From: a virus
Reading direction: 5' to 3' (one strand)
DNA length: 64,000 nt
IMG/VR virus record: IMGVR_UViG_3300027870_000001
Span: 22,792-86,791 of that record
In this document: positions 19,360 through 36,669 of the stretch, piece by piece
How the letters are laid out: every line of letters begins with the position of its first letter
Position numbering within the stretch: position 1 is the first letter of the stretch
Translations under genes and position numbers: made by a program
Notes under the pieces: generated by a model
What the model was told of the DNA's origin: nothing
The model's database searches: none
The model's input: the letters and a program-made list of their open reading frames with translations, nothing else

Positions 19360-19362
19360 CCG

Positions 19363-19385
19363 ACTGTCGCCGGAACAGGTAGCAT
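19363..19385 (+). promoter_or_regulatory. Repeat promoter variant driving putative ncRNA-1
   Basis: ACTGTCGCCGGAACAGG-TAGCAT. Confidence 0.6.
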
Positions 19386-19389
19386 CGGA

Positions 19390-19486
19390 GAGCTGGTGGG
19401 AGTGAGTGAACAACTGCCCGCCCGTGGAGACACTGGCATCCCAGCCCGCAAGGGGTTGGAGTGGACAGCACTACTCCCGCCAGCTC
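19390..19486 (+). ncRNA. Putative structured ncRNA-1 (about 95 nt; long basal stem, three-way junction, two GNRA tetraloops)
   Basis: GAGCTGGTGGGAGT (19390-19403) pairs with ACTCCCGCCAGCTC (19473-19486); GTG-GAGA-CAC and CCAGCCC-GCAA-GGGGTTGG hairpins; own promoter and terminator. Confidence 0.65.
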
Positions 19487-19500
19487 ACCCCAGGAACGAC

Positions 19501-19534
19501 GAAGGCCCCGGGGGTCGCACGGTCCGGGGCCTTC
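19501..19534. terminator. Hairpin between convergent transcripts (probable bidirectional terminator)
   Basis: GAAGGCCCCGG...CCGGGGCCTTC 11-bp stem. Confidence 0.7.
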
Positions 19535-19566
19535 GGTCGATGTCCGCTGTGGACGGTAGCTGGCGG

Positions 19567-20136
19567 CTACCTCCAGTTGTGGGGACCTTGCCCGGTCCGG
19601 TAGTTGTCGACGCCGCGGTTCCACAGCCACGCCCCGCACGAAACTTGGGCAGCGGGCCCGACATGGTCGAGGGTCGTGTTGTACCCGCACTTCCGGGCCC
19701 AGCCGAGGAGCATCCCGTAGTACCCGGCGGCGGTCGACGCCGAGTTGCGGACCCACCACCGGAACCGGGACTCACGCCACGCGATGTAGCAGGTCGGGCG
19801 GTCGCGGCCGTTGCACACCTCCAGGCCGTCGATCCAGCACGACGACGAGTACCGGGTGCATGGCTGGTTGCGGATCTCCGCAGCGTGCGCGACGGCGGCG
19901 GCGAAGGCGACGAGCCGGGCGTAGTCGGCCTGACGGTTGAGCTCGGTGTACCACGTCCAGACGTCGATCTCGTGTTGGGTCGGGGCCTTCGCCACTGGTC
20001 GGCTGGCGGGGGCGGTGGCCGCGACGTGGACGGTCTGGGCGGCGCCCGGTGGGGGTTGGCACCCGACGAGCGCGGTGAGGGTGATGGCTGCCGTGAGTGC
20101 CACGACAGCGAGGTGTCTGATGGTTGGTTTCAGCAT
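19567..20136 (-). CDS. Putative lipoprotein with lytic-transglycosylase/Rpf-like domain
   Basis: Signal peptide with lipobox-like LVGC; IAWRES...RNSASTAAGYYGML motif; divergent promoter at 20143-20163. Confidence 0.6.
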   Translation of the reverse strand: MLKPTIRHLAVVALTAAITLTALVGCQPPPGAAQTVHVAATAPASRPVAKAPTQHEIDVWTWYTELNRQADYARLVAFAAAVAHAAEIRNQPCTRYSSSCWIDGLEVCNGRDRPTCYIAWRESRFRWWVRNSASTAAGYYGMLLGWARKCGYNTTLDHVGPAAQVSCGAWLWNRGVDNYRTGQGPHNWR

Positions 20137-20142
20137 CCCGAA

Positions 20143-20163
20143 AGGTTACGGGACCGTTACAGT
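20143..20163 (-). promoter_or_regulatory. Divergent variant of the repeat promoter
   Basis: Minus strand ACTGT-AACGGTCCCG-TAACCT, 6 nt to ATG at 20136. Confidence 0.5.
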
Positions 20164-20171
20164 CGGGATCA

Positions 20172-20194
20172 ACTGTCGGCCGTGAAGCGACAGT
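20172..20194. promoter_or_regulatory. Perfect-arm palindrome ACTGTCG-N9-CGACAGT (operator-like)
   Basis: Lies between divergent promoters; same half-site as the repeat promoter. Confidence 0.6.
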
Positions 20195-20211
20195 CCCGGC
20201 GTCCTTGCCCA

Positions 20212-20233
20212 ACTGTCTCGGATCGGCTACAGT
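20212..20233 (+). promoter_or_regulatory. Repeat promoter, leaderless start at 20242
   Basis: TTGCCC-17-TACAGT; ACTGTCTCGGATCGGCTACAGT, 8 nt to ATG. Confidence 0.8.
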
Positions 20234-20241
20234 CGCACGGC

Positions 20242-21816
20242 ATGGAAGCACCCACAGCACCCCCGACGTCACCCCTCGACGTCACCACCATGATCCCAGC
20301 ACAACGCGACGCCGAGATCGTCCGCCTCCAAGCCGAGACGTTCGACCACAGCGGCCACGTCTACGCCGGGCTCCCCACCTCCAGGCGACGTGCCCTCGTC
20401 AACCGGATCAACGCGCTCCGCAAGGCGAACGGCTGGTCCCCGATCAACATGAAGGGCCGCATCCGATGACCACCTACCAGATCATCGACGGCGGCAGCGT
20501 CGTCCAGTCGGTCGACGTGCTCTCCCTCACTGACCAGGAAGTGGCCGACGGCGTCGAGCTGGTCCTGGTCGAAGGGCTCCCCGCCAACGTGGCCGCGGCC
20601 TACCACCGGCGCCGCCTCCACTACAACCCCGAGGACCGGAACCGGGTCACCGTCGCCGCTACCGAGACGACCAACGTCACTCCACCGAACCTCGACCCGA
20701 ACCCCGACGCCAGGTACTTCGCCGTGCTCGTCGAGGTGTCGAAGGAAGGCCACTGGCAGGAGCCGTACGGTCTGTCCCGACGCCGCAACGACGGCACCGC
20801 CCGCCCGTTCGGAGGCGAGTGGGGGCTGCTCTCCAAGTGGGAAGCGGAACGGCTCCGCGACGCCTTCAACGCCGACGCCGTCACGGCCGGCCCTGACGCT
20901 GACCTCGTGTGCACCGCCCGGGTGGTCGAGTTCTGCCGCTGGGACCAAGACCCCGAGTGGCCTGAGGAGTGGGCATGACCTCCACCGGTGGCCCCAACGA
21001 CGGGGCCGAACACGACCGTCAGCTCCCGACTCTGCACCCGGTCCGCGACGGCCAACCGGTCGCCCCCGCCTACCGGTGCTCGGTGTGCCTGGTCGACGCC
21101 GAGGACCACCGGTTCGCGGCGTGCCGCGGTGGCCACTGGGCTGAGGTCCGACCCGACGGATCCAGGATCCCTCGCAACCCCGGCGACCGGCACGACGCGA
21201 TGGAACGCCACCCGTGGTGGCCGCTCCTGGAGCTGCTCACCTTCCACCCCGAGCTGCCCGTCCCGCAGCACTTCGACCTCGTGCTCCGCGGCCCCGACCA
21301 GCACCTCGCCTGGCTCGTCGGCTGCACCGAGATCGACCTGGCCCATGGCAACGGCCGCAACCCGGGCCCGGGCTACGCCTGGGTGACCCGCCAGTTCGGG
21401 GACACCACGGTGATGGCCATGTTCGACACCGTGTACCTCGGGGAGTGGGACTACGACCGAAGCGTGCTGCTCCTCGGGTCGGTCGATCAGGTCCGCGATA
21501 GGCTCCGCACGGCCATGGCCAAGACCGGGGAGGGATCGTGACCGACCTCACCCAAGACCGGCCGGCGTCCCCGGTCGCCCAAGCCGTCGACCTGCTGATT
21601 GCCGCGGGGATCCCCCCGGAGCGGCTGCGCGACCGGTACCACACCGACCCCGAGTTCCACCTCGTGGTGTTCCTCCTCGCCCGGCTGCTCCAGCGGGCCA
21701 ACGATGCCGGGATCGACCTCCTCACCGAGGACGAGGAGGCAGCGGCCGCGGTGGTCGCGCGAATGCGCCGGGTCGCCGCGCTCACCACGGCCACCCCGAC
21801 CAGGGCCGTCCTGTGA
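20242..21816 (+). other. Hypothetical CDS 20242-20469, 20466-20978, 20975-21541, 21538-21816
   Basis: Translationally coupled chain. Confidence 0.6.
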
Positions 21817-22319
21817 GCGCCTCCGAGGTGCCCGCCGGCACCGTGCACCCGGCCGGCATGACGGCCTGTCAGGCGTGCCCGTGGCGCACCGCGAACCACG
21901 GCCAACGCAACGCGGGAGGCTGGTACACGAAGGCCAACCTGCGTCGCCTGTGGGCGAAGCTCCGCCAGGGCGACTCGATGTCGTGCCATCCGACGGACCC
22001 GCGCATGAACGACGACCCGGGGATGCCCCGCCCGGTCCCCGAAGGGACGGTGCTGCGCGAGTGCGCCGGGTCGCTGGTGCTCATCGAGCGTGAGGCCAAC
22101 CGGTTCGAGGAGATCGTCAAGGCGGGCGGGTCGCTCGCTGACTACCGGCGTGCTCACCCGATGGGCCTCACCCGTGACGGGATCCTGTCGATCGTGGGCC
22201 GGTCGTTCTCTGCGGTGCCGATCATCGGTGACGGGCGTCCGAAGATGACGGCGGTGGACGTCGATGATCCGGCGGTCGGGTACGAGCGCCTGGTGCCGTG
22301 GGAGCCCAAGACCGACTGA
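21813..22319 (+). CDS. Cys-rich protein (DUF6283-like pattern)
   Basis: CQACPWR...MSCH...ECAG; same pattern in 50067-50345. Confidence 0.5.
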   Translation: MSASEVPAGTVHPAGMTACQACPWRTANHGQRNAGGWYTKANLRRLWAKLRQGDSMSCHPTDPRMNDDPGMPRPVPEGTVLRECAGSLVLIEREANRFEEIVKAGGSLADYRRAHPMGLTRDGILSIVGRSFSAVPIIGDGRPKMTAVDVDDPAVGYERLVPWEPKTD

Positions 22320-22328
22320 CGTTGCGTC

Positions 22329-22351
22329 ACTGTCTCACGTCGTGCTACAGT
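22329..22351 (+). promoter_or_regulatory. Repeat promoter, leaderless start at 22359
   Basis: TTGCGT-18-TACAGT; ACTGTCTCACGTCGTGCTACAGT, 7 nt to ATG. Confidence 0.8.
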
Positions 22352-22358
22352 GACAGGC

Positions 22359-24045
22359 ATGACGAACCCTCCCTCGACCGCCTCCCTCGCCCAACTCCGC
22401 GACGGCACCGCAACCGACCGCAGCTACGGCGCCCCCTGGGTCACCCTCAACGCGCTCGCCGCCGACCTCGACGCCGTCCTCATGGAGATCGACTTCGACC
22501 ACGTCACCTGGCGCAACCCCGACGGCGACAACTTCGGCCCCGAAGCCGGCGTCATCGCCCTCGGCAAAGGCAAGCGCACCGTCGCCCGAGCCCGCATGAC
22601 CGACGGCCACGCCGACGCCCGCCTCCGCCTCACCGACTGACCCACCAACCCCAACGAAAGGCCCTGCCCCATGACCACCACCACCGACCCCGAGACGATC
22701 GACGTAGCTGGCCTCTCCGCCGCCATCGTCGGCAACACCCCCACCGACTTCGAGTACGACGACGAGAAGTGGCCCGAGAGCTGGGACTACGTCCCCGTGG
22801 TCCGCTGCGAACACTGCCGGGCGGTGATCATCGACACCGACGACCACCTGTCCACCATCGTCGACGAGAACGGCACCCCGGTCCTCCGAGACGGCGCCGA
22901 GGTCCACGCCACCGAGGCCGACAAGGACGACTGGGACCTGGCCGACGGCGAGGAGTGGGACGACTGCGACGCCGCCGACCAGGATGCCAGCGACCTCGAT
23001 GCCGGCGGGCCGTGGATGAACTACTGGTACCCGGCGTGGCTCCGCTTCGGGGAGACGGCCGAGGATCTGGCGCGAGCCACGGTCGACTCGGTCCTCGTGG
23101 TCGTCACCCGGAACGATGGCGATGAGGTCGGGTTCGCGCTCGGCGGTGGCGGCATGGACCTCTCGTGGGAAATCTGCGAGGGCTACATGTCGGCCGGGCT
23201 CCTGCCGCCGTTCACCTTCTGCGACCTGCCCGCCATGGGCGGTCTGTCCGCGACCCCGAAGACCCTGGCGGTCATCGCCGCTTGCAAGCGCACGGCCGAG
23301 TGCATCGCTGACCGGGCCCGGTACACGACGGACCGCCTCGACCGGTTGCAGGCCGACCTGCGGCCGGTCACCGAGGAGGGCTGATGGGCTTCGCCTCGGA
23401 CGACACGCTCGCTGCGATCGACATGAAGGTCGAGGAGCTGATCGACGCCGCCCAGACCGCGGCCCGTCGCTACAGCATCCCGGCCCGCTGGCCTCGCCTC
23501 GCCGCGGTGGTCGACGGGTTCCAGGTCACCGCCGAGATCGACCCGGACGGCGAGGTCGAGAACGACCGCTGGGTCGACCTCACCTCCTACTGGGCCGAGG
23601 CGGTCGGGCCCGACGGGATCGTGCACCGCGGCCGGTTCAGCGGCGGCGAAGTCACCTGGGGTGCCGAGTGAAGCCGTCGGTGTGCCCGCTCTGTGGACGC
23701 AAGTTCGGGTCCGAGATCATCTGCCTCGGCCACGCCACCTCCGAGCACGGTCCGCGCGAGATCCTCGCCAAGCTCCGTGAGGTGCTCGACCCGGTGCCCC
23801 ACCAGCTCGCCGGCCGCTGGACGACCGAAGGCGGCGCCGAGGCGTGGGTCGACGGGGTCCTCATGCTCACGGCCCCCGAGCCCGGCGTGTCGTACATGGT
23901 CGCGATCGACCGGTCGGTCCACGTGTGGCTGATCTGGCACCCGGACACGGGCGGGCTCATGGCCACCACTCACGGGTCGGTGCTCGCCCGCACCACCTAC
24001 GAGCTGCCCGAGCCCGACCGGATCTACCGGTTCACTGAGGCGTGA
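22359..24045 (+). other. Hypothetical CDS 22359-22640, 22671-23384, 23384-23671, 23668-24045
   Basis: Closely spaced chain; GAAAGG RBS before 22671. Confidence 0.6.
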
Positions 24046-24067
24046 CTGTCGCCGGATCGGCTACAGT
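24045..24067 (+). promoter_or_regulatory. Repeat promoter, leaderless start at 24074
   Basis: ACTGTCGCCGGATCGGCTACAGT, 6 nt to ATG. Confidence 0.8.
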
Positions 24068-24073
24068 CTGACC

Positions 24074-25441
24074 ATGGCACGAACCCCAACATCAACGCCG
24101 GCCCAGTTCGGTCCCGTCGACTTCGACGACGACGACTTCCCCGACCGGCCGGTCCATCACCTCCACCACGTCGCGATCACCAACATCAAAGGGATCCGCG
24201 GCGCGTCGGTCACGATCGAGGACGGCACCCTCACGATCGTCTCCGGCGCGAACGGCCAGGGCAAGTCGTCGTTCGTCGACGCGATCTTCTACGCCCTGCT
24301 CGGCGGCAAAGCCCTCAAGGGCACCGCCCACCCGGTCACCAAGGGCGAGGAGAAAGGCCGGGTCGAGCTGACGTTCACCGTCGGAGACGGCCCCGAGCAG
24401 ATCCTCGTCACCAAGTCGTGGACGAAGGGCGGCGCCGACTCCACCCTGGAGATCCGCAACAGCGACGGGTACACGACGAAGTCGCCGCAGAAGGTGCTCG
24501 ACTCGATGCTCGGCGCCCGCGCTCTGGACCCGTTGGCGTTCATGAACCTCACCGACTCGCAGCAGGTCGAGGACTTCCTGTCGATGATCGAGGTCGACGT
24601 CGACCTCGACGACCTCGACGCCGACGAGGAGAGGGCCCGCCAGTTGCGTGGCGACGTCGGCCGCGACCTGCGCGCGATGCGGGCCCGGTGCGACGCCATG
24701 CCAGAACCGTTCGACGGGCTCCCCCCAGAACCGATCGCGATCACCGACCTGATCGCTGAGGAGGAGAAAGCACGGGCCCACAACGACAAGATCGACCACA
24801 CCCTGGAGGTCGCCGCCCAGACCGACGGCCTGGCCCTCGCTGCCCGTTCCCTCGTCGAACGGCTCACGGCCGAGCTGGAAGCCGCTGAGGAGGCTCTCGT
24901 GCGGGCTGACGCCACCGCCGCCCGCGCCGCCGAAGACGCGCAACTGGTCCCGGCCCGGATCGACATCGACGAGATCCGTGGCCGCATGGCCGACGTCGAC
25001 GTCATCAACGAACAGGTCCGTGCCGCGAAGTCCCGGCAGGACGCCCTGAACGAGCTGGCCCAGTTGGAGCGCCGGCACCGTGACCTGGAGGAGACGATCG
25101 CTGGGATCCTCGCCACGAAGGAGGAGGCGATCGCCGCGGCGGACATGCCGATCGACGGGCTCACCTTCGCATCCAAGAAGGAGGGCCTCGTCTACCAGGG
25201 GACCGCGTTGAAGGACTGCTCCGCTGCCGAGCAGCGCCTCGTCGCCTGCTCCCTCGCCATGGCCGGTGACCCGCAGATCCGGTTGATCTCCGTCGAGGAT
25301 GGGTCGCTCCTCGACTCCGCCGCGCTCGCCCAGTTGGAGGAGATCGCCGCGGCCCGCGACTTCCACGTCCTGATCGAGATCGTCGACGAGTCCGGCGAAG
25401 CCGGGATCGTGTTCCGCAACGGAGAGGTCGTCCCGTCGTGA
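24074..25441 (+). CDS. SMC/Rad50/RecN-like ABC-type ATPase with coiled coil
   Basis: Walker A GANGQGKSS; central coiled coil; signature-like CSAAEQ; Walker B/D-loop ISVEDGSLLD. Confidence 0.8.
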   Translation: MARTPTSTPAQFGPVDFDDDDFPDRPVHHLHHVAITNIKGIRGASVTIEDGTLTIVSGANGQGKSSFVDAIFYALLGGKALKGTAHPVTKGEEKGRVELTFTVGDGPEQILVTKSWTKGGADSTLEIRNSDGYTTKSPQKVLDSMLGARALDPLAFMNLTDSQQVEDFLSMIEVDVDLDDLDADEERARQLRGDVGRDLRAMRARCDAMPEPFDGLPPEPIAITDLIAEEEKARAHNDKIDHTLEVAAQTDGLALAARSLVERLTAELEAAEEALVRADATAARAAEDAQLVPARIDIDEIRGRMADVDVINEQVRAAKSRQDALNELAQLERRHRDLEETIAGILATKEEAIAAADMPIDGLTFASKKEGLVYQGTALKDCSAAEQRLVACSLAMAGDPQIRLISVEDGSLLDSAALAQLEEIAAARDFHVLIEIVDESGEAGIVFRNGEVVPS

Positions 25442-26157
25442 GCGGCCAGAGCCCATGGGACGGGCCGCTCCCTCCGGTCGTCGACGAGCACCGGCCCGAG
25501 GTCCCGGCCGAACCCAACCACGCACGGCAGAGCGTCGCCACGGCCGTGATCCGCCAGTACGCCGAAGGCAACGTCGACCTCGTACGGGTCCTGCGCCGGC
25601 TCCTGGACGACGGCTACGAGATCCCGACCCTGACCTCACCAGCGGACGCGCCGCCGTTGGAGGTCGCCAACGAGCTGCTCGACTACGTGCTCCCGGCCAA
25701 CGGGTTCCCGGCCGGGTCGACCCGGATCCTCGGCCCCGCACGACACGCCCCCGACCTGATCGTCCCGGGCGCGAACGGCCCTATCCCCGGCGACCGGCCC
25801 GTCGCGGCTGCGGGTGGCGCGTGCCCTCCGGCCCCCGACATGTTCGACTTCTTCAAGCTCCCCGAGCCGCCGGTCATCCCCGCTGACCCGGTCGAGCTGA
25901 TCGCCTACTGGAGGAACGAGGCGGCGAACTGGCGCCAGGCTGCCCGGCGCCTCAAGGGCTCCAAACACAAGAGCGACCGGAACCGCCGCCGCCGGTACAA
26001 GGCCATGGCCTCCCAACTCGACGCGTGCGCCCGCGAACTGGAGAAGTGCCTCGCTGGCGGCGGGCCGATGACCCTCCTCGACTACTGGACGCCCCTCTCC
26101 CCGACGTGGGGCGGGATCAAGTTCATCCAGCCCCCGCCCCTGGACCCGGAGCCGTGA
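25438..26157 (+). CDS. Hypothetical protein
   Basis: GTGA overlap. Confidence 0.55.
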   Translation: MSGQSPWDGPLPPVVDEHRPEVPAEPNHARQSVATAVIRQYAEGNVDLVRVLRRLLDDGYEIPTLTSPADAPPLEVANELLDYVLPANGFPAGSTRILGPARHAPDLIVPGANGPIPGDRPVAAAGGACPPAPDMFDFFKLPEPPVIPADPVELIAYWRNEAANWRQAARRLKGSKHKSDRNRRRRYKAMASQLDACARELEKCLAGGGPMTLLDYWTPLSPTWGGIKFIQPPPLDPEP

Positions 26158-26330
26158 ACGCCCTCTGGCCATGGCTGACCGTCGGCTTGCTCCTCTTTCT
26201 CGCCGGGTCAATCATGGACGAAGCGTTCAACGCCCCGATCGGATCGTGGCTGTTCAGCATGGCCTCGATCGGATGCTGGTGGCAGGCCGGGCGCATCCTC
26301 TGGCGGATCCACAACGACCCACCCCAACCA

Positions 26331-26357
26331 GGAGCCCCAACATGACCGACCTGCCCC
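26331..26357 (+). repeat. 27-nt start-associated repeat, copy 2
   Basis: Exact match to 15371-15397. Confidence 0.85.
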
Positions 26358-26746
26358 GCAACGCCCGGATCGTGATCGGAGGCCACCCCCGCACCGGGAA
26401 GACCACCCACGGCAACCAGCTCGCCGCCGCCCTCGGCGTGACCTGCCAGCACACCGACGACCTGATCGACCTCGGCTGGTCCGAAGCGTCCGCCGCCGCA
26501 GCCGAGTGGATGACCAAGCCCGGCCCGTGGGTGATCGAAGGCATGGCCGCGGCCCGCGCGCTACGCAAGGTCCCCGAGTCGGAGCACGGCCCATGCGACC
26601 TGCTCATCTGGTTGACCGACCCGTTCGAGCCGCTCACCAAAGGGCAGCTCGCGATGGGCAAGGGCGCGGACACGGTCCTCGCGGGGATCGTCGACGCCCT
26701 CGACGACGCGCAGGTCCAGGTACGGTCCAGGCCGCTCGACCTGTGA
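26342..26746 (+). CDS. Small P-loop NMP-kinase-like protein
   Basis: IVIGGHPRTGKTT, HTDD, WVIEG. Confidence 0.65.
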   Translation: MTDLPRNARIVIGGHPRTGKTTHGNQLAAALGVTCQHTDDLIDLGWSEASAAAAEWMTKPGPWVIEGMAAARALRKVPESEHGPCDLLIWLTDPFEPLTKGQLAMGKGADTVLAGIVDALDDAQVQVRSRPLDL

Positions 26747-26963
26747 AGGCGTTGGCCGTGATCGACGACGACGGCATGGTCGTCGCCTGGTCCGAGTCGT
26801 CCCTCGGCTGCTACCGCAAGATCGCTGACGCCGACGACAACGGGGTCACCTGGCAACAGATCCGCACTCTCCACGAGGCCGGCGACCCGTTGACGGTCAC
26901 CGTGCTCGACCACCCAACCACCTACCGGATCGTTCCCCGATCCGAGATCGAGGACCACCAACC

Positions 26964-29090
26964 ATGACCACCGACCCCCAGCCCGTGCTCACCCCGTACG
27001 TGGGGCGCGCCACCTCCGACAGCCCGAGTGGCGTCCACGTGCTCTACCTGTCCCCGCAGGGGTGGGCGCTCCAGCACCCGAAGCCCGGCCCCGGCGGGGT
27101 GTGCTCCGAGTTCTGCCCCACCCAGCAGGCCCTGGAGGAGGTGCTCGACCGGACAGCCTGGTTCGCGTTGAGTGATGACGACTTCCGTCGTCTCGTCCAG
27201 CTCGCCCCCGAGGTCGACATCACGATGATGACCCGCCCCCCGTACTGGGTCGACCAGATCGGCCAACTCCTCGCCTACCACGGCGCGGTGGCCCCCGATG
27301 GCAGCCACAACTGGTGGGACCGGTCCGCGCTCGTCACCGCGTTCCGCCGGCTGGTCGAGTCCTGGACCCAGCCCGGCGCAGCAGCCGGCACCTTCAACCC
27401 CGCGGACTTCGGGCCGGTCGACGCCGACCCGATGGTCCCCGTGCCCCGAGCGGGGATCGTCGCCTACGCCAAGGCGGCGCGCGAGCACGGCCTGTACGGC
27501 ATGGCCGACGACTTCGACAAGATCCTCGGCCACCCGGCCCGTGAAGAACCGGAGCACCCGGAGGTGGTCGGGCTCCGCTACGACGTGGCCGTGTCGCTCA
27601 TGGGCGCGATGCGCCGGTGCAACATGTGGGAGGAAGCCGACCGGCTCCGCAACCTCCTCCGCCTCGACGAGATCCCGGTCCTCCACGACGGCCAGCAGGT
27701 CGGTGTCGTCGAGGAGGTCACCCGCGAGCCCGACGTGATCATCCGCAACACCTCCGGGTTCCCGATGCCCGACAGCGACCAGGCACGGCTCGACTTCGCG
27801 GAGGGGTTCGCCCCCGCGATCGACGCGGTGCAGGAGGCCCTCAACTCGGCGTTTCCCGACGACGGCGCTGGCCCCTGGACCGGGCTCGCTGCGTCCAAGG
27901 TGGTGCGTGGCCTCAAGCTCCTCGGCTGGGCGGTCGTCGAACGGCAGGAGGTGCACGACCAGTGGACAGGCGTGCTCAAGATCGAGGGCGTCCCCGCCGG
28001 TGACCAGCGGCTCGCGCGCTCTGACCGGCCCGAGGTCAACGAGGTGCTCGACCGGCTCAGGATCATCCAGACCGCCGACTGGTGGCAGCACGTCCACGAG
28101 GACGGCGAGGCCCACTACTACCTCGACGCGATGCTCCGCGCGGCCGGTGCCCTGGCCCCTGACCCACGCCCGACGGAGCTCGACAGCGTGAACGATCTGC
28201 TCCACACGGCGTGGGGCATCATCGCCAACGCCCAGCACGCCCTGGGCAACGGCATGTCGCTCGACGAACTCGCCACCGCCGAACCCGAGCTGACGACTGC
28301 AACCGAGGAGGTGGAGTGGGCCAGGGCCGCGGTCCGGTTCCGTGACGCCTACCACCTCCACCTCGGCATCCCGACGGACTACGAGGTCGTGGAGGCGGTG
28401 CCCGTGCCGTGGGTCCCGAGCCCCGACGAAGCCGACCACACCCTGGCCCGTGCGATCCTCGGCCAGTCGAGCACCCTCGCCGGCTACGAACGGGACTGGG
28501 TGAAGGACCACTACCGGCACGGCGTCTCCGACTTCGCCCCGACGTCGCTGCTCACCCGGTGCACCTTGGAGATGGTCCCCGCGGGTGCGGTGTGGGCATG
28601 GGCCGACGAGGTCGACGGGGCCGGGCTGATCCGCTGGCTCCAGGCTTACGAGGTCGGTCGGGTGGCGGATCTGCTCGGCACGATCGGTGGCCAGGCCGAC
28701 GCGATCCGCACGTTCGGCCGTCTCGGGTCGGATCCGGTGGAGGTGCAGCGCCGGCTCCAGCAGGAGGTGGCGTTCCTCGATCCCAACGTGTTCACCGGTC
28801 ACGTGGTCCCGGAGCCCGCGCCGTGGGCAGCGGAGGTGTGGGAGAACATGGAGTCGGGCCCTGAGATCCCGCTTGACATGACCGCGGTCGACAAGGGCGA
28901 CCCCGATCGTCCGACCGAGGTCACCTCCCGGCCGACGCCCGACGAGCGCGACCTCCGCAACCAGGCGCTGACCCTGGCCATCGGCTACGTCACCAACGCC
29001 AGCATGGGCGGCAACGCCCTGGAGGTGGCCGAGCAGTACCTGGCGTTCCTCCGCACCGGTCAGGCCCCGCCCCTGGCCACGTTGGGGTGA
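26964..29090 (+). CDS. Large mosaic hypothetical protein (708 aa)
   Basis: Long ORF with native codon usage, GAGG RBS, followed by terminator. Confidence 0.7.
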   Translation: MTTDPQPVLTPYVGRATSDSPSGVHVLYLSPQGWALQHPKPGPGGVCSEFCPTQQALEEVLDRTAWFALSDDDFRRLVQLAPEVDITMMTRPPYWVDQIGQLLAYHGAVAPDGSHNWWDRSALVTAFRRLVESWTQPGAAAGTFNPADFGPVDADPMVPVPRAGIVAYAKAAREHGLYGMADDFDKILGHPAREEPEHPEVVGLRYDVAVSLMGAMRRCNMWEEADRLRNLLRLDEIPVLHDGQQVGVVEEVTREPDVIIRNTSGFPMPDSDQARLDFAEGFAPAIDAVQEALNSAFPDDGAGPWTGLAASKVVRGLKLLGWAVVERQEVHDQWTGVLKIEGVPAGDQRLARSDRPEVNEVLDRLRIIQTADWWQHVHEDGEAHYYLDAMLRAAGALAPDPRPTELDSVNDLLHTAWGIIANAQHALGNGMSLDELATAEPELTTATEEVEWARAAVRFRDAYHLHLGIPTDYEVVEAVPVPWVPSPDEADHTLARAILGQSSTLAGYERDWVKDHYRHGVSDFAPTSLLTRCTLEMVPAGAVWAWADEVDGAGLIRWLQAYEVGRVADLLGTIGGQADAIRTFGRLGSDPVEVQRRLQQEVAFLDPNVFTGHVVPEPAPWAAEVWENMESGPEIPLDMTAVDKGDPDRPTEVTSRPTPDERDLRNQALTLAIGYVTNASMGGNALEVAEQYLAFLRTGQAPPLATLG

Positions 29091-29095
29091 ACCAG

Positions 29096-29127: not shown

Positions 29128-29140
29128 GCTGTCCCGGCCC

Positions 29141-29163
29141 ACTGTCGCCGTAGATGCTACGGT
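29141..29163 (+). promoter_or_regulatory. Repeat promoter, leaderless GTG start at 29171
   Basis: ACTGTCGCCGTAGATGCTACGGT, 7 nt to GTG. Confidence 0.75.
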
Positions 29164-29170
29164 CGGCCCC

Positions 29171-29602
29171 GTGATCCTGTACCACGGCACCACGCTCGAA
29201 GCGTGGCTCCTGATCCACCGTGACGGCCTCGTCCCGCACCGTGCACCCGGCCGCGACATGACTGTGGTGTGGGCCTCGGATGACCCGAACGTCGCCCGGT
29301 TCTACGCCCGAGGCGGCGTGTGGACGTCGCCGTCGACCGCCGGGGTCGTGCTGGCCTTCCCTGCCCCCGAGGACGCTCAGATCGTACGTGACGCCGCTCA
29401 CCCGCGACTGTGGACCTGCCCCACCCTGATCCCGGCCGAGTCGATCAGCGTGCACGAGACGATCCCCGCCGCCGAGTGCGGATCGGCGTTCGGTGACCTC
29501 GGCGCCCAGGTGAAGGCGTTGGCCAGCGCGTTCCACGCAGCGACCGCGCTCGTCGCAGCGACCAAGACCAAGATCCCATCCAACACTGGAGCCCCAACAT
29601 GA
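29171..29602 (+). CDS. ADP-ribosyltransferase-fold (KptA/Tpt1-like) protein
   Basis: MILYHGT...IHRDGL...VWASDDPNVARFYA. Confidence 0.55.
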   Translation: MILYHGTTLEAWLLIHRDGLVPHRAPGRDMTVVWASDDPNVARFYARGGVWTSPSTAGVVLAFPAPEDAQIVRDAAHPRLWTCPTLIPAESISVHETIPAAECGSAFGDLGAQVKALASAFHAATALVAATKTKIPSNTGAPT

Positions 29603-29614
29603 CCGACCTGCCCC
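29588..29614 (+). repeat. 27-nt start-associated repeat, copy 3
   Basis: Exact match to 15371-15397. Confidence 0.85.
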
Positions 29615-31254
29615 GCGCCCCCGGCTACAACGACCTCACCGACGCGGAGAAGCTCCTCGCCCAAGCGATCGCCGTCGAGGTGGTCAACGCCAAGGACGCC
29701 CTCGGCATCCTTGGGTCGGAGCCGATCATCTACGACGCTTCGATCCCGACGTTCGTCAAGGCGTGGGCGCTCGCCATCGAAGCCGGCGGCAACGACACCG
29801 CCGACCTGGCCGAGGACATCAAGCCCGCCCCCCGTCAGGTGTCGCGGGCGGACGTGTGGCATTGGCTGGGCCGGCACGGCATCGACGGCGGCACCGACCG
29901 ACCGATGGGCGGGGCGATCCGCCTCCACGCCGATCTGGTCGAGCTCCCCCCGGCCGACGCCCAGAACCCGGGCGCCCGGCCCGGCCGCACCGACCTCCAC
30001 GACGCATCCGCGGTGGCATCGGTCGAGCTGCTCCCCATGATCAACGGCCGCTACGTCCAGACCACCTCCGCCGGGGAGATCACCCCGGTCGCGCTCATCC
30101 CGTACGACCTCGTGCCCGGCGAAGGCGCCGATGCCTGACGACCGGGTCAACGCCTTGGCGGCGGAGATGCGCGCCGCTGGCGGCGAAGGCATGGAGGTCA
30201 TCGAGCGGCGGGTGATGGGCGGGCAACGGCTCCGCCTGTGGATGCCCTCGGCCGCGGCGTCCGCGAAGCTGCGGGCGCTCGCGTCGTCGTTCGGGTGGCC
30301 GTCGAACGTGGTGCCCCACTACGCCCACCCGGGCGCGCGAGGGTCGACAGGGGTCCAGGTCGTGATCGACATGAAGGTCGGGCAGGGACAGGTTGAGGGC
30401 GGTCACCGTGAGGTGGGCGCCGGCCGTCGTAGCGTCGGCCCCGGAGGTGCACGATGACCAACGAGATCACGATCCAGGTCGGCCCCGAGGGCATGAACCC
30501 CAACGACCCGCGCTGGCAGGACGCGCTCCTGACGATGACCGGCCGGGTCCAGAACTTCCCGTTCTGGGACTACAAGCCCGAGCTGATCCGCGGTGGCCGT
30601 CGCCTCGACCGGTTCGTCGACCCCCACCTGGAGGCGCTCCGCGAGTGGCGGCGGATGCTGTGGCACAACGTGGCCGGTCACCTGATCGGCTACTGCGTGG
30701 TGTTCCCGTTCTCCCGGCGGCTTGGCCACTGGATCCACGACAGGACCGAACCCTGATGGGCATCCTCGACCCGGGCGAACTGCTCGCCGCCGCGACCATC
30801 GACGACGCAGCAGAGCTCGTCAACCGGCTCCTCACCGAACCCGACCCGGAGATCCTCGCGGATCTCCTCGAACACGTCGTCGACCAGTCCGACCGGGCTC
30901 ACGCGGTGCTCGCCCTGTTGGTGCTCACCGCCCGCGGTGCCCCGGTGTCGGAGACGGGTGTCGAGCTGGTCAACCAGGCCGGCCAGGTCGTCGGCCAACT
31001 GATCCTCCCGCCATCATGATCATCATCGTCCTGGTGGTGGCCGGTGTGGTCGCAGCCCGGGTCCTCGGCCAGTGGCTGGTCGGGTGAGCGACCTCGGGAA
31101 GCCGAAGGCCCGGTACCGGCGTCCGTGCCCGACGTGCGCCTCGACGGTCAGGACCAAGACCCGCGACGGCGAAGACATCGTGGTGTCCTGCACGGGGGGC
31201 GGCTACGTGATGGGCCGGATCACTCTGACCCGGGATCTGCCCGGCCCGTGCTGA
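29599..31254 (+). other. Hypothetical CDS 29599-30138, 30131-30457, 30454-30756, 30756-31019 and tiny ORFs to 31254
   Basis: Coupled chain. Confidence 0.55.
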
Positions 31255-31889
31255 ACCGCGACCCGGCGAAGAACCGGGCATGGCAGGACCGCAGCCGTGC
31301 TCGGGCCCGCGAGAAACGCAACGCTCGACCTGGGGTCGAGGGTCAACCTCACGTCGACATCGAACCACCGCCGACCCCGAAGCTGACCCGTCCGGTGCCG
31401 CCCCCTCCACCACGGCCGACCGATGTCGAGCCGGTGGCCAAGCTGTTCACCGACGCCGACACCCAACCCCGCGACGTGGTCCGCGCCGAACGGATCTCCA
31501 TCGACCGGGTGTGCCAGGCCCGCGGGTTCACGACGGTGCCGTGCGACCGTGGCCAGGAGGTCGACGAGATGCAAGGCCGAGGCCGGCGACCGGGGTCGGA
31601 GCTGGTCCTCGCTGAGACGCAGCTCCTGTGCCACACCTGCCACGCGCTCAAGACCCGTCACCCGCGGATGGCCGGGCTGCTCGGCCTGTACGGGCCGGTC
31701 GAGCAGGAACGGCGGATCACGGTCGAGGGCCGCGACAAGGTGGAGGAGGCGCTCGTCGAGTGGGTGCGCCGGAAGTCGACGGCGAGGGGGATCGACGCGG
31801 GGTCCCCGGTGTGGTCGGGGGTGGTCGGGTTGGCGGTGCGACGGGACGCGACCGGGGTGTTGGCGTTGATCGCTCCGCAGGTTGCGTGA
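31248..31889 (+). CDS. HNH-like endonuclease (degenerate)
   Basis: VCQ...PC...EVDEMQGRGR...QLLCHTCHALKT. Confidence 0.55.
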   Translation: MLNRDPAKNRAWQDRSRARAREKRNARPGVEGQPHVDIEPPPTPKLTRPVPPPPPRPTDVEPVAKLFTDADTQPRDVVRAERISIDRVCQARGFTTVPCDRGQEVDEMQGRGRRPGSELVLAETQLLCHTCHALKTRHPRMAGLLGLYGPVEQERRITVEGRDKVEEALVEWVRRKSTARGIDAGSPVWSGVVGLAVRRDATGVLALIAPQVA

Positions 31890-31910
31890 CTGTCGCCCGT
31901 TGGCTACAGT
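31889..31910 (+). promoter_or_regulatory. Repeat promoter driving putative ncRNA-2
   Basis: TTGCGT-17-TACAGT; ACTGTCGCCCGTTGGCTACAGT. Confidence 0.75.
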
Positions 31911-31917
31911 CATTGGT

Positions 31918-31990
31918 GCCCCCCCACTTCCGCCGGTGGGGTGCGGGCGACGGCATCGGATCCACCTCACCCGCCGAGGTGGACGATGTC
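31918..31990 (+). ncRNA. Putative two-hairpin sRNA with CCGCC loops (ncRNA-2)
   Basis: Hairpin 31918-31948 (loop TTCCGCCG) and 31952-31990 (loop ACCCGCC); starts 7 nt after the -10 element. Confidence 0.55.
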
Positions 31991-31993
31991 ACT

Positions 31994-32030
31994 GAGGGTG
32001 CCCCCGGTTGATACGGCCGGGGGCACCCTC
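31994..32030 (+). terminator. Terminator-like hairpin
   Basis: GAGGGTGCCCCCGG/CCGGGGGCACCCTC perfect 14-bp stem. Confidence 0.75.
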
Positions 32031-32049
32031 GCGAACCGGCACTTGTGCA

Positions 32050-32072
32050 ACTGTCTCACGCCGTGCTACAGT
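32050..32072 (+). promoter_or_regulatory. Repeat promoter, leaderless start at 32080
   Basis: TTGTGC-18-TACAGT, 7 nt to ATG. Confidence 0.8.
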
Positions 32073-32079
32073 GACGGAC

Positions 32080-33476
32080 ATGGACGCAACCACCTTCACC
32101 TCCGAAGCCGCCTACCGGGAAGCCGTCGCAGACGAAGCCCCCAGCCCGATCCTCTGGGACGCCACCCCCGGCGTCTGCTGCGCCGCCTACCAGCTCGGCG
32201 CCTGCCCCCACACCGAGGAACTGACCGACGACGACATCGCCCAGATGGAGGCCGAGTGGCGGCGGGACTTCCCCGAGGAGGCCGCAGCCGCCGACGCCTG
32301 GTTCGCCGCCCAGCCCGCCCCCCGCTACGACATCGAGGAGCCGTTCTGATGGATGACATCACGATCCTCGACGCCGCCTGGGCCGAGGCGGAGCGCGACC
32401 TCGACGCCCTCAAGGCCGGTCGCACCGCAGCCCTCAAGGACTTCATGGCCCGCCGCCCGGTGAGCTTCACCCAGCTCGGCACCGATGCTGCGTCGTGCGC
32501 CTGGCGGCTCGGCTACTGGGAGCGCCTGGCCAAGCTGGTCGCCCGCAGCCTGGAGCCGAAGGCCACGACCCACGTTCTCCCCGAGGGGTTCGGTCTGCCG
32601 TACGCCCAAGCGGGGGTCCACGACGGCATGGCCAACGTGACCTGCCCGGTGTGCGGCGAGGTGTTCGTCGGCCACGACCACAAGGAAGCCGGTGCCGCCT
32701 ACGGCGAGCACTTCACCAAGGAAGCGAGCGAAGGACGATGACCGACCTCGTCACCTCCGCCCAGACCAAGGCGCTCCTCGACCGCCTCGTGGCCAAGGGC
32801 TACGAGATCCAGGCTCACGGCATCGTCCGCGGCGCCCGAGAGGTCAGCTTCGGCAGCCGCTCCGACTTCGGGTGCATCAAGGTGTCCCCCAAGTACGGGC
32901 GGATCCTCCGCTGCTACCTCGTCCTCGGTGGCGCCCCTGAGGTGAAGATCAGCGGCGTCGCGAACGTCCGCCGAGCACTCGACGCCCTCCCGACGGTCGA
33001 CGTCCTGGAGCGCACGTGAGCACCCCGTGCTCGGTCGTGGCCTCCACGTCGTGCATCGCCCCGGCGAACTCGACGATGTCCACGAGGGGCCGGTGCTTCG
33101 CCTGCGGTGAGCCGGTGTGCCTCGACCCGTGGTGCTCCCGGATCCGAACCTGGGGGCGATGCGGGCGACGTCGGGTCTGCCGCAACTGCGACGGGCACAA
33201 CGGCCTTCACGCCGACCCCGTCGCGCTCGACGCCTACGACCGCCGGCTCCTCCTCGCTGACCGGAGCCGACGATGAACGGCCCGCCTCCGGTCATGGAAT
33301 GGACCCGAGCCAAGTCGCCGTGGTCGCCGGTCCCGGTCGCTGCGCCCCTCTGGTCCCGGTTCACCGGCGAGGAGCACCAGGCCCTCGCTGAGGGCGGTAC
33401 CGTCCGTCGTGGTGGCACCTCGTGGCGGATCCCCGCCGCCGATCTGCCCTCCCGTCTTCAACTGGCCCTGTTCTGA
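32080..33476 (+). other. Hypothetical CDS 32080-32349, 32349-32741, 32738-33019, 33016-33276 (Cys-rich), 33273-33476
   Basis: Coupled chain. Confidence 0.55.
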
Positions 33477-34129
33477 TGCCGCTCCCCCTGTACCTCGCCA
33501 CCCCATCGAGCGCCCCGGCCCGTGACCTCATGTCGGCCGGTGGCCTCGGCCAGATGGTCACCCCCTACGCCGGGAACGCCCGAGTCCCTGGCGCTCTGTG
33601 GGCGCTCGACAACGGGTGCTTCTCCACCGCCGGCTGGACCCCGGACCGGTGGCTCGCCACCCTCGACAAGCTGTCCGAGGGCCCGATCCAGACCGAGGCC
33701 GACGCCCTGGCCAACGGATGGTGGCAGCCGTGCCTGTTCGCCGTCGTGCCCGACGTCGTCGGTGACGCTGCCGCCACCGACTCGATGTGGGTGCGCTGGT
33801 TCCGGGCCGTGATCCGCAACGGGTTCCGACCCGCCTACGTCGCCCAGGACGGGGCCGGGCCCGGCTGCCTGCCCCCGGCGGCGACCGCCCTGTTCATCGG
33901 CGGATCGACGGAGTGGAAGCTCGGCGTCGAGGCCCGACGGATCGTGGCCGAAGCCCACCGCCGTGGCATGTGGGTCCATATGGGCCGGGTCAACAGCGAG
34001 CGCCGGCTCCGGTACGCCTCCGACATCGGCTGCCACTCGGTCGACGGCACGTTCCTTGCGTTCGGCCCGGACATCAACTTGCCCCGCCTCCAGTCCTGGC
34101 TGAACCCCGCGCAGCCCAGCCTGTGGTGA
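33476..34129 (+). CDS. TGT/DpdA-like (7-deazaguanine transglycosylase-fold) protein
   Basis: WALDNGCF, VPDVVGD, AYVAQDG, FIGGSTEWK, VHMGRVNS, SVDGT resemble TGT-family catalytic motifs. Confidence 0.6.
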   Translation: MPLPLYLATPSSAPARDLMSAGGLGQMVTPYAGNARVPGALWALDNGCFSTAGWTPDRWLATLDKLSEGPIQTEADALANGWWQPCLFAVVPDVVGDAAATDSMWVRWFRAVIRNGFRPAYVAQDGAGPGCLPPAATALFIGGSTEWKLGVEARRIVAEAHRRGMWVHMGRVNSERRLRYASDIGCHSVDGTFLAFGPDINLPRLQSWLNPAQPSLW

Positions 34130-36039
34130 CGGCCTCCCGTCGCCGGGTCGGCCTGTCGAACCCGTCGTGGTGGATCCTCCAGTTCCCGTTCGACCGGGAA
34201 CTGATCGCAGAGGTCCGGTCCATGGGCGCCGTCGCCGTCCCCCGCTCCGACAAGTGGACGCTCCCAGCGAACCCTGGCTACGCGGCCCAGCTTGTCGGGC
34301 TCGGGTTCACCGGGCACGGCCACCCGACGGGCGCGACTCTCGACGAGGTTGCCGCCACAGCGGCCCGGCTGATCGCCCTGTCCTCCGCGTTGGAACCGCC
34401 GCCCGAGTTCGAGGTCCCCGGTCTGACCCGCACCCTCGCCCCCCATCAGGCGGCGGCGGTCGCGTACGTCCAAGAGCAACGCCGGGTGATCGTCGCTGAC
34501 CCGATGGGCGCGGGCAAGACGTTCGAGGGATGGGCAGCGGTCCACGCCTGCGACGCCTACCCGGCGCTGTGGGTGTCCCCGGCGAAGCTCCGCACGAACG
34601 CCGCGGTCGAGGCCCTCGACGCGCTCCCCACCGGCACGAGAGTCGCGGTCGTGCTGCCCCGCTCCACCGAACCAGCGAAGGTCGAACGGGCTCGTGCCCG
34701 CGGCATCCTCCCGATGCTCGGCCGACCCCGGCCCGGCGCCGCCGACGTGTACGTCACCGGGTACCCGCTGTTCCACACCGAGCTGGCCTGGTGGAAGGGC
34801 GTCGGGCTCAAGGGCCTGATCCTCGACGAGTCGCAGCTCTGCAAGTCCAGGGACCGGATCAAGGGCTGCCCGATCTGCCGGGCCCCGATGCGACGAGGCG
34901 GGGTGTGCTCCGGGCCCGGCCGGCACCCGGTCCTCCCCGACCGGCGGATCGACCTGTACGCGGTGCTGTGGACCCGCGCCGCCGACGAGCTCATCGACTC
35001 GATGGGCCCGGACCCGATGATCCTGGAGCTGTCCGGGACCCCGAACAAGAACACGAACGCCGACTGGCCAACCCAGCTCGACCTCATCCGCCGGCTGCAC
35101 CAGTTCGGCGGTGAGCGCAACGTGCTGTTCCGGTACTGCGACCCGATGCGCGTCGCCGGCCGATGGCAGTTCCGGGGCGGCTCGAACTACGCCGAGTTCG
35201 ACCGGCTCAAGCGGGCGACGGGGTACGTGCACCGCACGAGGGAAGCGATCCACCCGAACCTGCCGCCCCTCGTCAGGTCGCCGCTGCTCCTCGACCTCGA
35301 TGACGACCTCCTCGTCGACTACCGGGCAGCCGAACGGGACCTGATCCGGTTCGCCGGCCAACGCGCAGCGAAGCTCGCCGCCGCAGCCGGGGAAGACCCC
35401 GGGTCCGCCTCGTGGGAGGCAAGGTTGCGGGCCGAGGCCGGGTTCCATCTCGTGCGCCTCGGCACCCTCGCCCGCCTCGCCGCCCTGGCGAAGGTCCCAG
35501 CCGCGGTCGAGTGGGTGACCGACTTCCAGGCAGCGAACCCGGAGGCGAAGCTGATCGTGTTCGCCCACCACCGCGACGTCTGCGCCCAGCTCGCCGCAGC
35601 GTTCGACTGTCCGAGGATCGACGGCTCCACGACGGCCGACCCACAGGACATCAAGGACCGGTTCCAGTCGGACCCGTCGATGCTGGTCCTGGTCGTGGGG
35701 ATCACCGCCGGTGGCGTCGGCCTCACCTTGACCGCGGCGCACGACGAGTTGTTCGTCGAGCAGGTCCACACGGCCGGCGATCACGACCAGGCCGAGTCGA
35801 GGGCCTACGCCCGGATGAACGATCCGCATGGGGTGACGGCGACGTACCTGTTGGCGGCGGACACGATGGACGAAGACCAGTGGCTGTCGCTCGCAGCGAA
35901 GCGGGTGACGACCGAGGCGGGCCGCTCGGGCGACCCGGAGGCGATCAGGAAGGCCGAGGAGTTGAAGCGTCTGGGGCCGGCGGCGGTGGCGGGGGATCTC
36001 CTCGTGCAGCTCGCACGGCGGTCGGGGGTCGTGGGCTGA
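34126..36039 (+). CDS. SNF2-family helicase
   Basis: LAPHQ, ADPMGAGKT, LILDESQ, LSGTP, IVFAHH, GGVGLTLT, QAESRAYAR. Confidence 0.88.
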   Translation: MTASRRRVGLSNPSWWILQFPFDRELIAEVRSMGAVAVPRSDKWTLPANPGYAAQLVGLGFTGHGHPTGATLDEVAATAARLIALSSALEPPPEFEVPGLTRTLAPHQAAAVAYVQEQRRVIVADPMGAGKTFEGWAAVHACDAYPALWVSPAKLRTNAAVEALDALPTGTRVAVVLPRSTEPAKVERARARGILPMLGRPRPGAADVYVTGYPLFHTELAWWKGVGLKGLILDESQLCKSRDRIKGCPICRAPMRRGGVCSGPGRHPVLPDRRIDLYAVLWTRAADELIDSMGPDPMILELSGTPNKNTNADWPTQLDLIRRLHQFGGERNVLFRYCDPMRVAGRWQFRGGSNYAEFDRLKRATGYVHRTREAIHPNLPPLVRSPLLLDLDDDLLVDYRAAERDLIRFAGQRAAKLAAAAGEDPGSASWEARLRAEAGFHLVRLGTLARLAALAKVPAAVEWVTDFQAANPEAKLIVFAHHRDVCAQLAAAFDCPRIDGSTTADPQDIKDRFQSDPSMLVLVVGITAGGVGLTLTAAHDELFVEQVHTAGDHDQAESRAYARMNDPHGVTATYLLAADTMDEDQWLSLAAKRVTTEAGRSGDPEAIRKAEELKRLGPAAVAGDLLVQLARRSGVVG

Positions 36040-36151
36040 GGTCCACGGATCGCCCCCCGGATCGTTCTGTGACGCTCTGGTGGCCGGGTCGGGGTCATCT
36101 CTGCCACCGCGAGGGGTGAGGGGCCAGGGGGACGCCGCGACGATCTCCCCG

Positions 36152-36189
36152 ATTGGGGGTTGTGCGACTGTCTCACGTCGTGCTACAGT
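36152..36189 (+). promoter_or_regulatory. Repeat promoter driving putative ncRNA-3; 38-bp exact duplicate of 50347-50384
   Basis: ATTGGGGGTTGTGCGACTGTCTCACGTCGTGCTACAGT. Confidence 0.85.
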
Positions 36190-36196
36190 CAGTTGT

Positions 36197-36638
36197 GAGG
36201 GCAAGCAAGCCACACCGCCCTCCAGCGCACCTTGAGAATCGAGAACCGGGCGAGGGTGAGACGCCCTCCCTGGGAGCCACGAGCTCCTCACCCGGGCGAT
36301 GCGTCGCCTGGGGTAACCCAGCCAGGGATAGGCCAGGATGGAACAACAACACCGGCTCTCGATTCACAACTGCACAGATCGAGGACCCGGCCAACTGGCC
36401 GGCCCGTGGAGGCACCATCCACGTGACCCTGCGACCCTGCCCCTGACGGCTAACGACCACCAGCCACCTGCGAACGGTGGAGGAACCCTGAACGAAGGGC
36501 AGGCGAGGGCACACGGTACGGGTGAGTGAACACGGAGCACGGCCACGAGCCGAACCGAGGTAACCGGGGAGAGACGTCCGAACCGGGGAAGTAGGGGAAG
36601 CCACGAGCCAGCCGGCCAGTTCGCCGGGTCCTCGATCT
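36197..36638 (+). ncRNA. Putative large two-domain structured ncRNA-3 (about 440 nt)
   Basis: 5' hairpin 36197-36222; stem 36236-36249/36352-36365; 27/28-bp stem 36376-36403/36611-36638; GCCACGAGC x3; no credible ORF. Confidence 0.72.
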
Positions 36639-36643
36639 ACGAC

Positions 36644-36669
36644 CTGCCACCGCTCCCGGGCGGTGGCAG
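36644..36669 (+). terminator. Terminator-like hairpin after ncRNA-3
   Basis: CTGCCACCGC/GCGGTGGCAG 10-bp stem. Confidence 0.7.

Follow-up and report, generated by a model that had tools for sequence, protein, structure and literature searches.

Does a phage promoter that mostly starts leaderless genes also drive structured non-coding RNAs? The question is raised by three promoter copies, at positions 19363, 31889 and 36167 of a 64,000-nucleotide (nt) window of viral DNA that comprises bases 22792-86791 of an 86,791-base IMG/VR virus contig (completeness rating 96%, GC content 69.6%). Positions given below are those of this window unless the contig is named, and the units that follow the three copies are called nc1, nc2 and nc3, respectively. 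A preliminary description had seen no credible open reading frame (ORF) after these copies and had proposed that they drive a co-regulated set of structured RNAs. Sequence analysis supports the three units as non-coding. The reading that we favour, and to which we give a little less than an even chance, takes them for non-coding transcription units, all three served by the phage's standard promoter, from which stable, folded RNAs would arise. As RNA structures, nc1 and nc2 have the best support, and nc3 is best supported as a non-coding island bounded by promoters; so far, all of the evidence comes from one sequence.

A promoter family shared by the genome

The promoter has the consensus TTGyGC, 1-2 nt, ACTGTC, 9-10 nt, GCTACAGT, and holds a 5-bp dyad (ACTGT-N12-ACAGT). 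Its strict pattern has seven matches against 1.05 expected, a number reached in 0 of 100 shuffles, and looser scans of the whole 86.8-kb genome place the number of copies at about 29 (range among scans 23-29), all on the plus strand. An ATG or GTG lies 6-8 nt past the -10 element at 22 copies, at exactly 7 nt in 17 of them, and these 22 mRNAs should therefore begin at the start codon, i.e. be leaderless. A few copies, such as those at 15323-15345 and 44105-44126, serve genes with a Shine-Dalgarno sequence via leaders of ~30-45 nt. The same -10 element and leaderless geometry occur at three sites of a distant relative (metagenome contig L090, helicase 46% identical), which makes the promoter type a lineage trait. 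Within the genome, a hairpin followed by a promoter is an ordinary cassette border, with junctions at 29089/29141, 31987/32050, 36643/36685 and 44047/44105. These borders resemble those of PeSL (promoter-early stem-loop) cassettes in that many sigma-70-like promoter copies stand at the edges of accessory cassettes, paired with a transcript-ending stem-loop.

The three sites had been described as three copies of this promoter, and this is borne out, though one copy is degenerate. Those of nc2 (31882-31910, plus strand; -35 TTGCGT at 31882-31887, ACTGTC at 31889, -10 TACAGT at 31905-31910) and nc3 (36160-36189, plus strand; -35 TTGTGC at 36160-36165, ACTGTC at 36167, -10 TACAGT at 36184-36189) have the full consensus; the former contains the stop codon of gene 31044-31889 and the latter shares 38/38 nt with the promoter of gene 50392 (copy at 50347-50384). 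The nc1 promoter (19356-19385, plus strand; -35 CTGACC at 19356-19361, ACTGTC at 19363, -10 TAGCAT at 19380-19385, 18-nt spacer) is a weak, atypical copy. Its left half, GACTGTCGCCGGA, matches the copy at 24044 at 13/13 positions, its right half and -35 element diverge, and the -35 element overlaps the stop codon of the upstream DUF1643 gene.

Coding potential of the three units

That no credible ORF follows the three copies was borne out by codon periodicity, third-position base composition and database searches. In the frame-specific GC plot, periodicity is absent in 19360-19560, 31890-32040 and 36040-36700; no aperiodic stretch of the genome is longer than 36034-36844, and 19324-19595 also ranks among the long ones. 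GC content at third codon positions (GC3) is 0.911±0.023 in 22 real genes (minimum 0.858) and 0.63-0.77 in all ORFs inside the three units. A Pfam search of these ORFs gave no match at E ≤ 1.

The leaderless start site is also missing, as none of the three copies has an ATG or GTG 6-8 nt past the -10 element. A GTG stands 5 nt past it in both full-consensus copies (31889 and 36167), 2 nt before the start position used by the leaderless genes, and opens frames of 31 (GC3 0.77) and 83 codons (GC3 0.70), respectively; the modal start position, the 8th nt past the -10 element, is in both copies a G, the third base of this early GTG. The nearest GTG of the 19363 copy lies only 10 nt past the -10 element, and no such frame closes before the nc1 hairpin. 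The 83-codon ORF alone was compared with 1.84 billion representative proteins, and it had just three matches, all repetitive and inside long proteins.

Predicted folds and unit ends

The predicted transcription starts had been placed at or near the base of a stem, and our folds agree, positioning 19392, 31918 and 36197 in 5'-terminal stems. Shuffling of the whole units gave z-scores of -4.9 (nc1), -6.95 (nc2) and -6.8 (nc3). The most telling comparison among these fold predictions is, in our view, that with the sister copies of the promoter. Over their first 100 nt, the 22 leaderless mRNAs have a predicted minimum free energy (MFE) of -25.9±6.3 kcal/mol and a mean probability of pairing at nt 1-10 of 0.38±0.14. 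The corresponding values are -53.3 kcal/mol and 1.00 for nc1, -49.5 kcal/mol and 0.99 for nc2, and -40.4 kcal/mol and 0.60 for nc3, while the four copies that have Shine-Dalgarno leaders or lack a start codon reach MFEs of -11 to -24 kcal/mol. This gap in stability and pairing sets the three units apart as a class among the promoter copies.

Each unit ends in a strong hairpin, as had been noted, with -30.5 (nc1), -38.3 (nc2) and -27.1 kcal/mol (nc3) in 46-nt windows. A terminator scan at the three unit ends found no terminator-like site. The sequences after the stems (GTCGATGTCC, GCGAACCGGC and CTTCGCGCCC) lack a U-tract in all three cases, so that the GC-rich hairpin of an intrinsic terminator is present and its U-tract is not. 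Mycobacterial RNA polymerase reportedly needs a U-tract for intrinsic termination, going by the title of PMC3993855.

Predicted structures of the three units

The body of nc1 (19392-19484, plus strand) is predicted to form a 93-nt Y-shaped fold, in which a 12-bp basal stem (19392-19403/19473-19484, one G-U pair) carries two arms with the loops GAGA and GCAAG. With the end hairpin excluded, its sense strand has a fold z-score of -5.8 (antisense -2.8), and only 8 of 6936 genome windows of the same length are equally stable for their GC content (top 0.1%). The GC-rich end hairpin (19500-19535) lies between nc1 and the stop codon of a convergent minus-strand gene and is, from this position, probably a transcript end shared by both directions. 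The convergent gene (19567-20136) stands amid plus-strand genes. Its 189-residue product carries a lipoprotein signal (lipobox LVGC), is rich in Cys and Trp in its C-terminal part and gave no match in Pfam and PHROG searches; the gene looks like a moron.

Two hairpins (31917-31949 and 31952-31990, plus strand) make up the nc2 body, with the predicted start at G 31918. The fold z-scores of the body (31917-31990), again without the end hairpin, are -3.6 (sense) and -1.4 (antisense). The 18-bp end hairpin (31993-32030, plus strand) is among the two strongest of the genome; the promoter at 32050 comes 20 nt after it and leads into the leaderless gene 32080-32349. A hairpin similar to that at the nc2 end belongs to an ordinary terminator, with a T-rich tail, close to the genome's left end (contig positions 1375-1420, G000:C1). 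In each arm a single base differs between the two (G/C in nc2, T/A in the other), and pairing is preserved (GAGGGTG...CACCCTC vs GATGGTG...CACCATC). The Rfam family 6C RNA (RF01066) was considered for nc2 and rejected, since it scores 20 bits against a gathering threshold of 47 (E = 1.1) and the C-run is predicted to be paired.

The predicted nc3 RNA opens with a 5'-terminal hairpin, GAGGGC/GCCCUC (36197-36222, plus strand), that begins at the predicted start G 36197. Two domains follow, each bounded by an inverted repeat: domain 1 (36232-36369, plus strand) by one of 18 nt (36232-36249/36352-36369, 89% complementary) and domain 2 (36376-36638, plus strand) by one of 28 nt (36376-36403/36611-36638, 96% complementary). 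The interior of domain 2 (207 nt) folds no better than random sequence (z = +0.6), its 3' half is purine-rich, and the minus strand of nc3 folds equally well or better. All three genomic copies of the 9-mer GCCACGAGC, a potential GC-CACGA-GC mini-hairpin, lie in nc3: one in domain 1 (36276) and two in domain 2 (36542 and 36600), at irregular spacings of 266 and 58 nt. A 9-mer was found three times in 0.8% of shuffles. Local GC content falls to 0.53-0.58 and the transcript would be purine-rich. A 10-bp end hairpin (36644-36669, plus strand) precedes the promoter at 36685 and the leaderless gene 36716-37030. The 5' arm of this hairpin, CTGCCACCGC (36644-36653), recurs exactly 540 nt upstream at 36101-36110, before the nc3 promoter and within the 125-nt non-coding gap after the helicase gene.

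The likeness to gene 50392 continues beyond the shared promoter: its start region can be aligned with the first ~50 nt of nc3 (score 10 vs 4.4±1.9 in shuffles), and both the leaderless ATG and the internal Shine-Dalgarno sequence plus ATG of that gene are gone from nc3. A decayed gene in nc3 was sought with tblastn using the products of 50392, 38562 and 20242, and nothing convincing was found past these first ~50 nt. An attempt to recognize a replication origin at nc3 from GC skew was uninformative, as cumulative skew is monotonic.

Links between the units, known families and relatives

The two exact words reported to be shared by nc1 and nc3 are present (19402-19412 and 36522-36532; 19420-19429 and 36402-36411) and unique to those sites. 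They carry little weight, as 1.7% of shuffles and 5 of 838 genome slices match this result, and 11-13-mers common to the units and the rest of the genome are frequent by chance; the link between nc1 and nc3 through shared words is weak. The notion of a co-regulated set is not supported, as nothing joins the three units beyond a promoter that ~26 other units also use, and the suggested roles as decoys, sponges or antitoxin-like RNAs are hypothetical. An 11-mer that overlaps one of the shared words, GAGTGAACACG (36524-36534), is also found in the leader of E. coli rrnH, ahead of its 16S gene (L091, rrsH leader), which is most likely a coincidence.

None of the units had been recognized as a known family, and the Rfam check agrees: a scan of the whole window with Rfam 15 at gathering thresholds returned 0 matches, and scans by E-value gave chance-level scores only (6C 20 bits, Proteo-phage-1 16 bits, F6 21 bits). 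ARAGORN detected no transfer RNA or transfer-messenger RNA. The units have no antisense match of ≥14 nt elsewhere in the phage at E < 0.1 and no paralogues above chance. Mimicry of 16S ribosomal RNA or the anti-Shine-Dalgarno sequence by nc2 and nc3 was rejected, since local alignments to E. coli 16S were no better than those of shuffles.

Searches of phage records with megablast, blastn and tblastn revealed no near relative, and viral contigs scanned with the helicase and a 708-residue protein yielded relatives at 25-30% identity only. Two promoter-pattern scans returned single chance matches without similarity to the genome, two scans for the shared words in either order returned 0 matches, and a scan of genome contigs retrieved only a Chloroflexia metagenome-assembled genome at ~30% identity. 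The sole alignable relative in the collections searched is L090, from a scan of metagenome contigs. Where synteny would place nc2, it has just a long hairpin; its helicase gene is followed directly by a promoter. Helicases P0002, P0003 and P0011, encoded on contigs of ~97-99 kb, are 46-48% identical to that of the phage.

Proposed mechanism and points against it

From the promoter match, the missing coding signal and the fold strength we infer transcription, RNA ends, stability and function as follows. The host's sigma-70-type RNA polymerase would start at a G where the 22 sister copies put the first base of ATG or GTG, so that the RNA would open with G followed by C or A. Since this 5' end is not AUG or GUG, the RNA would be untranslated under the mycobacterial leaderless rule. 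Its first bases would at once be locked in a stem. After ~115-475 nt, transcription would meet a GC-rich hairpin, which at nc2 and nc3 closely precedes the next promoter and at nc1 the convergent gene; this hairpin would limit read-through into the next leaderless cassette and cap the 3' end. The products may be compact, nuclease-resistant RNAs of ~150 nt (nc1), 115 nt (nc2) and 475 nt (nc3), made together with accessory genes. The lack of a complementary phage target and the three GC-CACGA-GC hairpins in nc3 make binding of host or phage proteins likelier, in our view, than antisense action. We consider it unlikely that at least nc1 and nc3 are founders of undescribed RNA families that act as protein-binding decoys or scaffolds and are switched together with the leaderless programme via the shared promoter-operator.

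Several observations weigh against stable RNAs from the three units. The 19363 promoter is degenerate. The nc2 body is equalled in GC-corrected stability by 52 of 6938 genome windows of the same length, which places it only in the top 0.75%. The missing U-tracts mean that discrete 3' ends are presumed and not assured. The nc3 signal, around an unstructured 207-nt interior, consists of two inverted repeats, which could function as DNA elements. Its likeness to the start of gene 50392 suggests that nc3 arose by duplication of a promoter-plus-start cassette, and so fits duplication and not design, although such a duplication is compatible either with an RNA gene that recruited a spare promoter or with a scar. 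Finally, the 21 kb of L090 examined contain no counterpart of nc1, nc2 or nc3.

Alternative explanations

The main rival, somewhat unlikely in our estimate, holds that the units are cassette scars: recombination between promoter repeats would have left gene-less copies that are perhaps transcribed but have no function of their own. The 38/38 identity between the 36167 promoter and that of gene 50392, and the alignment of the next ~50 nt of nc3 with the start of this gene after loss of both ATGs, count in its favour. Hairpin-then-promoter borders are ordinary here (29089/29141, 44047/44105), repeated promoters drive shuffling in T4-type phages (PMC2839356), and the distant relative L090 does without the units. 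A recently decayed gene at 70% GC should, however, retain some codon periodicity, and its absence over the 650 nt around nc3 argues against one; moreover, all three 5' ends are paired from the predicted start, unlike those of the 26 other units, nc1 and nc2 fold preferentially on the sense strand, and the 9-mer hairpin motif occurs three times and in nc3 only. Quite improbable, in comparison with stable RNAs as end products, are cis-acting leaders or attenuators, whose leaky hairpins would tune read-through into downstream genes or, for nc1, antisense transcription into the lipoprotein gene. None of the three end hairpins has a U-tract and nc1 faces a convergent gene, which would suit this role, and nc3 could even act in a boxA-like antitermination, since its 5' hairpin is followed by GCACCUUGAGAA, which agrees with the boxA consensus at 7/11 positions (E. 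coli UGCUCUUUAACA, B. subtilis AUGAUCUUUGAAA) in the hairpin-then-boxA order of rrn leaders (PMC13753749). Yet the genes after nc2 and nc3 own full promoters and have no Shine-Dalgarno sequence, and would be poorly translatable from within a read-through RNA; the boxA likeness is modest, and its consensus is that of E. coli and B. subtilis, which may not be the host's.

Small leaderless proteins of 31 and 83 residues, started at the GTG 5 nt past the -10 element of the 31889 and 36167 copies, are very improbable. The GTG has the same offset in both copies; for leaderless translation in mycobacteria, a 5' ATG or GTG is both necessary and sufficient, and unannotated small proteins are numerous there (PMC4633059). 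The 5-nt offset nevertheless falls outside the 6-8-nt range of all 22 leaderless genes, GC3 of the two frames (0.77 and 0.70) compares with 0.911±0.023 in real genes, Pfam matches are missing, the 83-codon ORF has no genuine homologue among the 1.84 billion proteins, the 5' ends are base-paired, and nc1 has no comparable frame that closes before its hairpin. A DNA-level element, proposed for nc3 only, has the slimmest chance: nc3 would be a replication origin or protein-binding site, and its promoter would give an activating or priming transcript as at the T4, T7 and ColE1 origins. The inverted repeats are strand-symmetric (28 nt 96% and 18 nt 89% complementary) with a minus strand that folds at least equally well, there are three 9-bp direct repeats, local GC content is down to 0.53-0.58 with a purine-rich transcript, and nc3, as the genome's largest non-coding island, comes right after the helicase gene. 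Against an origin, cumulative GC skew has no turning point at nc3, and the direct repeats are irregularly spaced (266 and 58 nt). We retain, tentatively, three structured non-coding transcription units as the preferred reading.

Source, host and other features of the genome

The same phage is also present in a 98,219-base ENA/Logan contig, in which the helicase (P0010) is identical except for its first residue. The sole sequencing run with this DNA is a freshwater metagenome (DNA run), probably the source sample, and contigs of this run show zero variants within nc1, nc2 and nc3. Logan contigs of the source run end exactly at promoter repeats (36160-36181 and 32033-32091), so the assembled cassette order hinges on the resolution of 31-38-nt repeats; the nc3 promoter lies inside the repeat itself, which leaves the conclusion on this promoter untouched. 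Among phage proteins, the helicase finds its best matches in Arthrobacter phages (29% identity). From these matches, the high GC content and the leaderless design with a TANNNT -10 element we infer an actinobacterial host.

Two further promoter copies have unusual starts. At 38534-38594, ATC replaces the leaderless ATG of the sister copies (ATCGAAGCAACC vs ATGGAAGCAACC at 50392) and is followed by AAGGAG at 38581 and an in-frame ATG at 38592; gene 50392 has the leaderless ATG plus the same internal Shine-Dalgarno sequence and ATG. At contig positions 13582-13680 (G000:C1), 9.2 kb before the window start, a copy drives a leaderless mini-ORF of 11 codons (MEAPAATNRSR) whose stop codon overlaps, as ATGA, with the first codon of a differently framed gene that has a Shine-Dalgarno sequence (AGGAG, then ATGATG); this looks like translational coupling of a portable promoter-plus-start cassette to a foreign gene. 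Codon periodicity is patchy and weak in 54700-56330, where GC content drops to the lowest value of the genome (0.43 at 55612), and this region may be foreign or non-coding DNA.

Comparison with known systems

The closest precedent is provided by the non-coding RNAs of L5/D29-type mycobacteriophages. In the Cluster A phages L5, D29 and StarStuff, the early promoter Pleft gives rise to abundant, stable non-coding RNAs from a ~500-bp ORF-less region, which has no ORF above ~30 codons and whose RNAs are of unknown function (PMC5712189). As there, a phage of a high-GC host has a promoter that leads into a stretch without sizeable or conserved ORFs, and nc3 (~475 nt) has the same layout. The two differ in that there is no sequence likeness and in that the Pleft RNAs were shown to be expressed, whereas the present units are known from sequence alone. 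Pleft is, furthermore, one locus at the right genome end, in contrast to three internal loci with a promoter common to ~26 protein-coding units, each closed by a hairpin and, at nc2 and nc3, followed by the next promoter. Because early-promoter non-coding RNAs of phages are thus already known, the units are candidate further cases and not a new kind. If they are real RNA genes, they would extend a little-studied observation, abundant non-coding RNAs from early promoters of actinobacterial phages, to an uncultured, ~87-98-kb high-GC lineage, and would offer three small units for tests, among them one with several copies of a hairpin motif, together with 22 leaderless mRNAs of the same promoter for comparison.

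Other known elements share single traits with the units. Mycobacterial leaderless small ORFs likewise have a short GTG frame near the expected start of a TANNNT promoter (PMC4633059), but here the GTG comes 2 nt too early, the codon bias of the genome is absent and the 5' ends are paired. The 6C RNA, the best-scoring actinobacterial Rfam family on nc2, is also small, with two hairpins and a C-rich run. T4-type phages have PeSLs at the borders of their accessory cassettes, each a sigma-70-like early promoter, present in many copies, combined with a stem-loop, and recombination between them can shuffle or delete cassettes; the stem-loops lie within or beside the promoter, before Shine-Dalgarno-led ORFs (PMC2839356, PMC4122927). 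The promoter described here has, by contrast, only a 5-bp dyad and serves mostly leaderless genes, and 75-445 nt separate the three promoters from the strong hairpins downstream. Recombination between repeats, as in PeSLs, would explain the origin of gene-less promoter copies, and if the units are scars, they would show that promoter repeats shuffle the cassettes of a leaderless genome too, in the manner of the PeSLs of T4-type phages.

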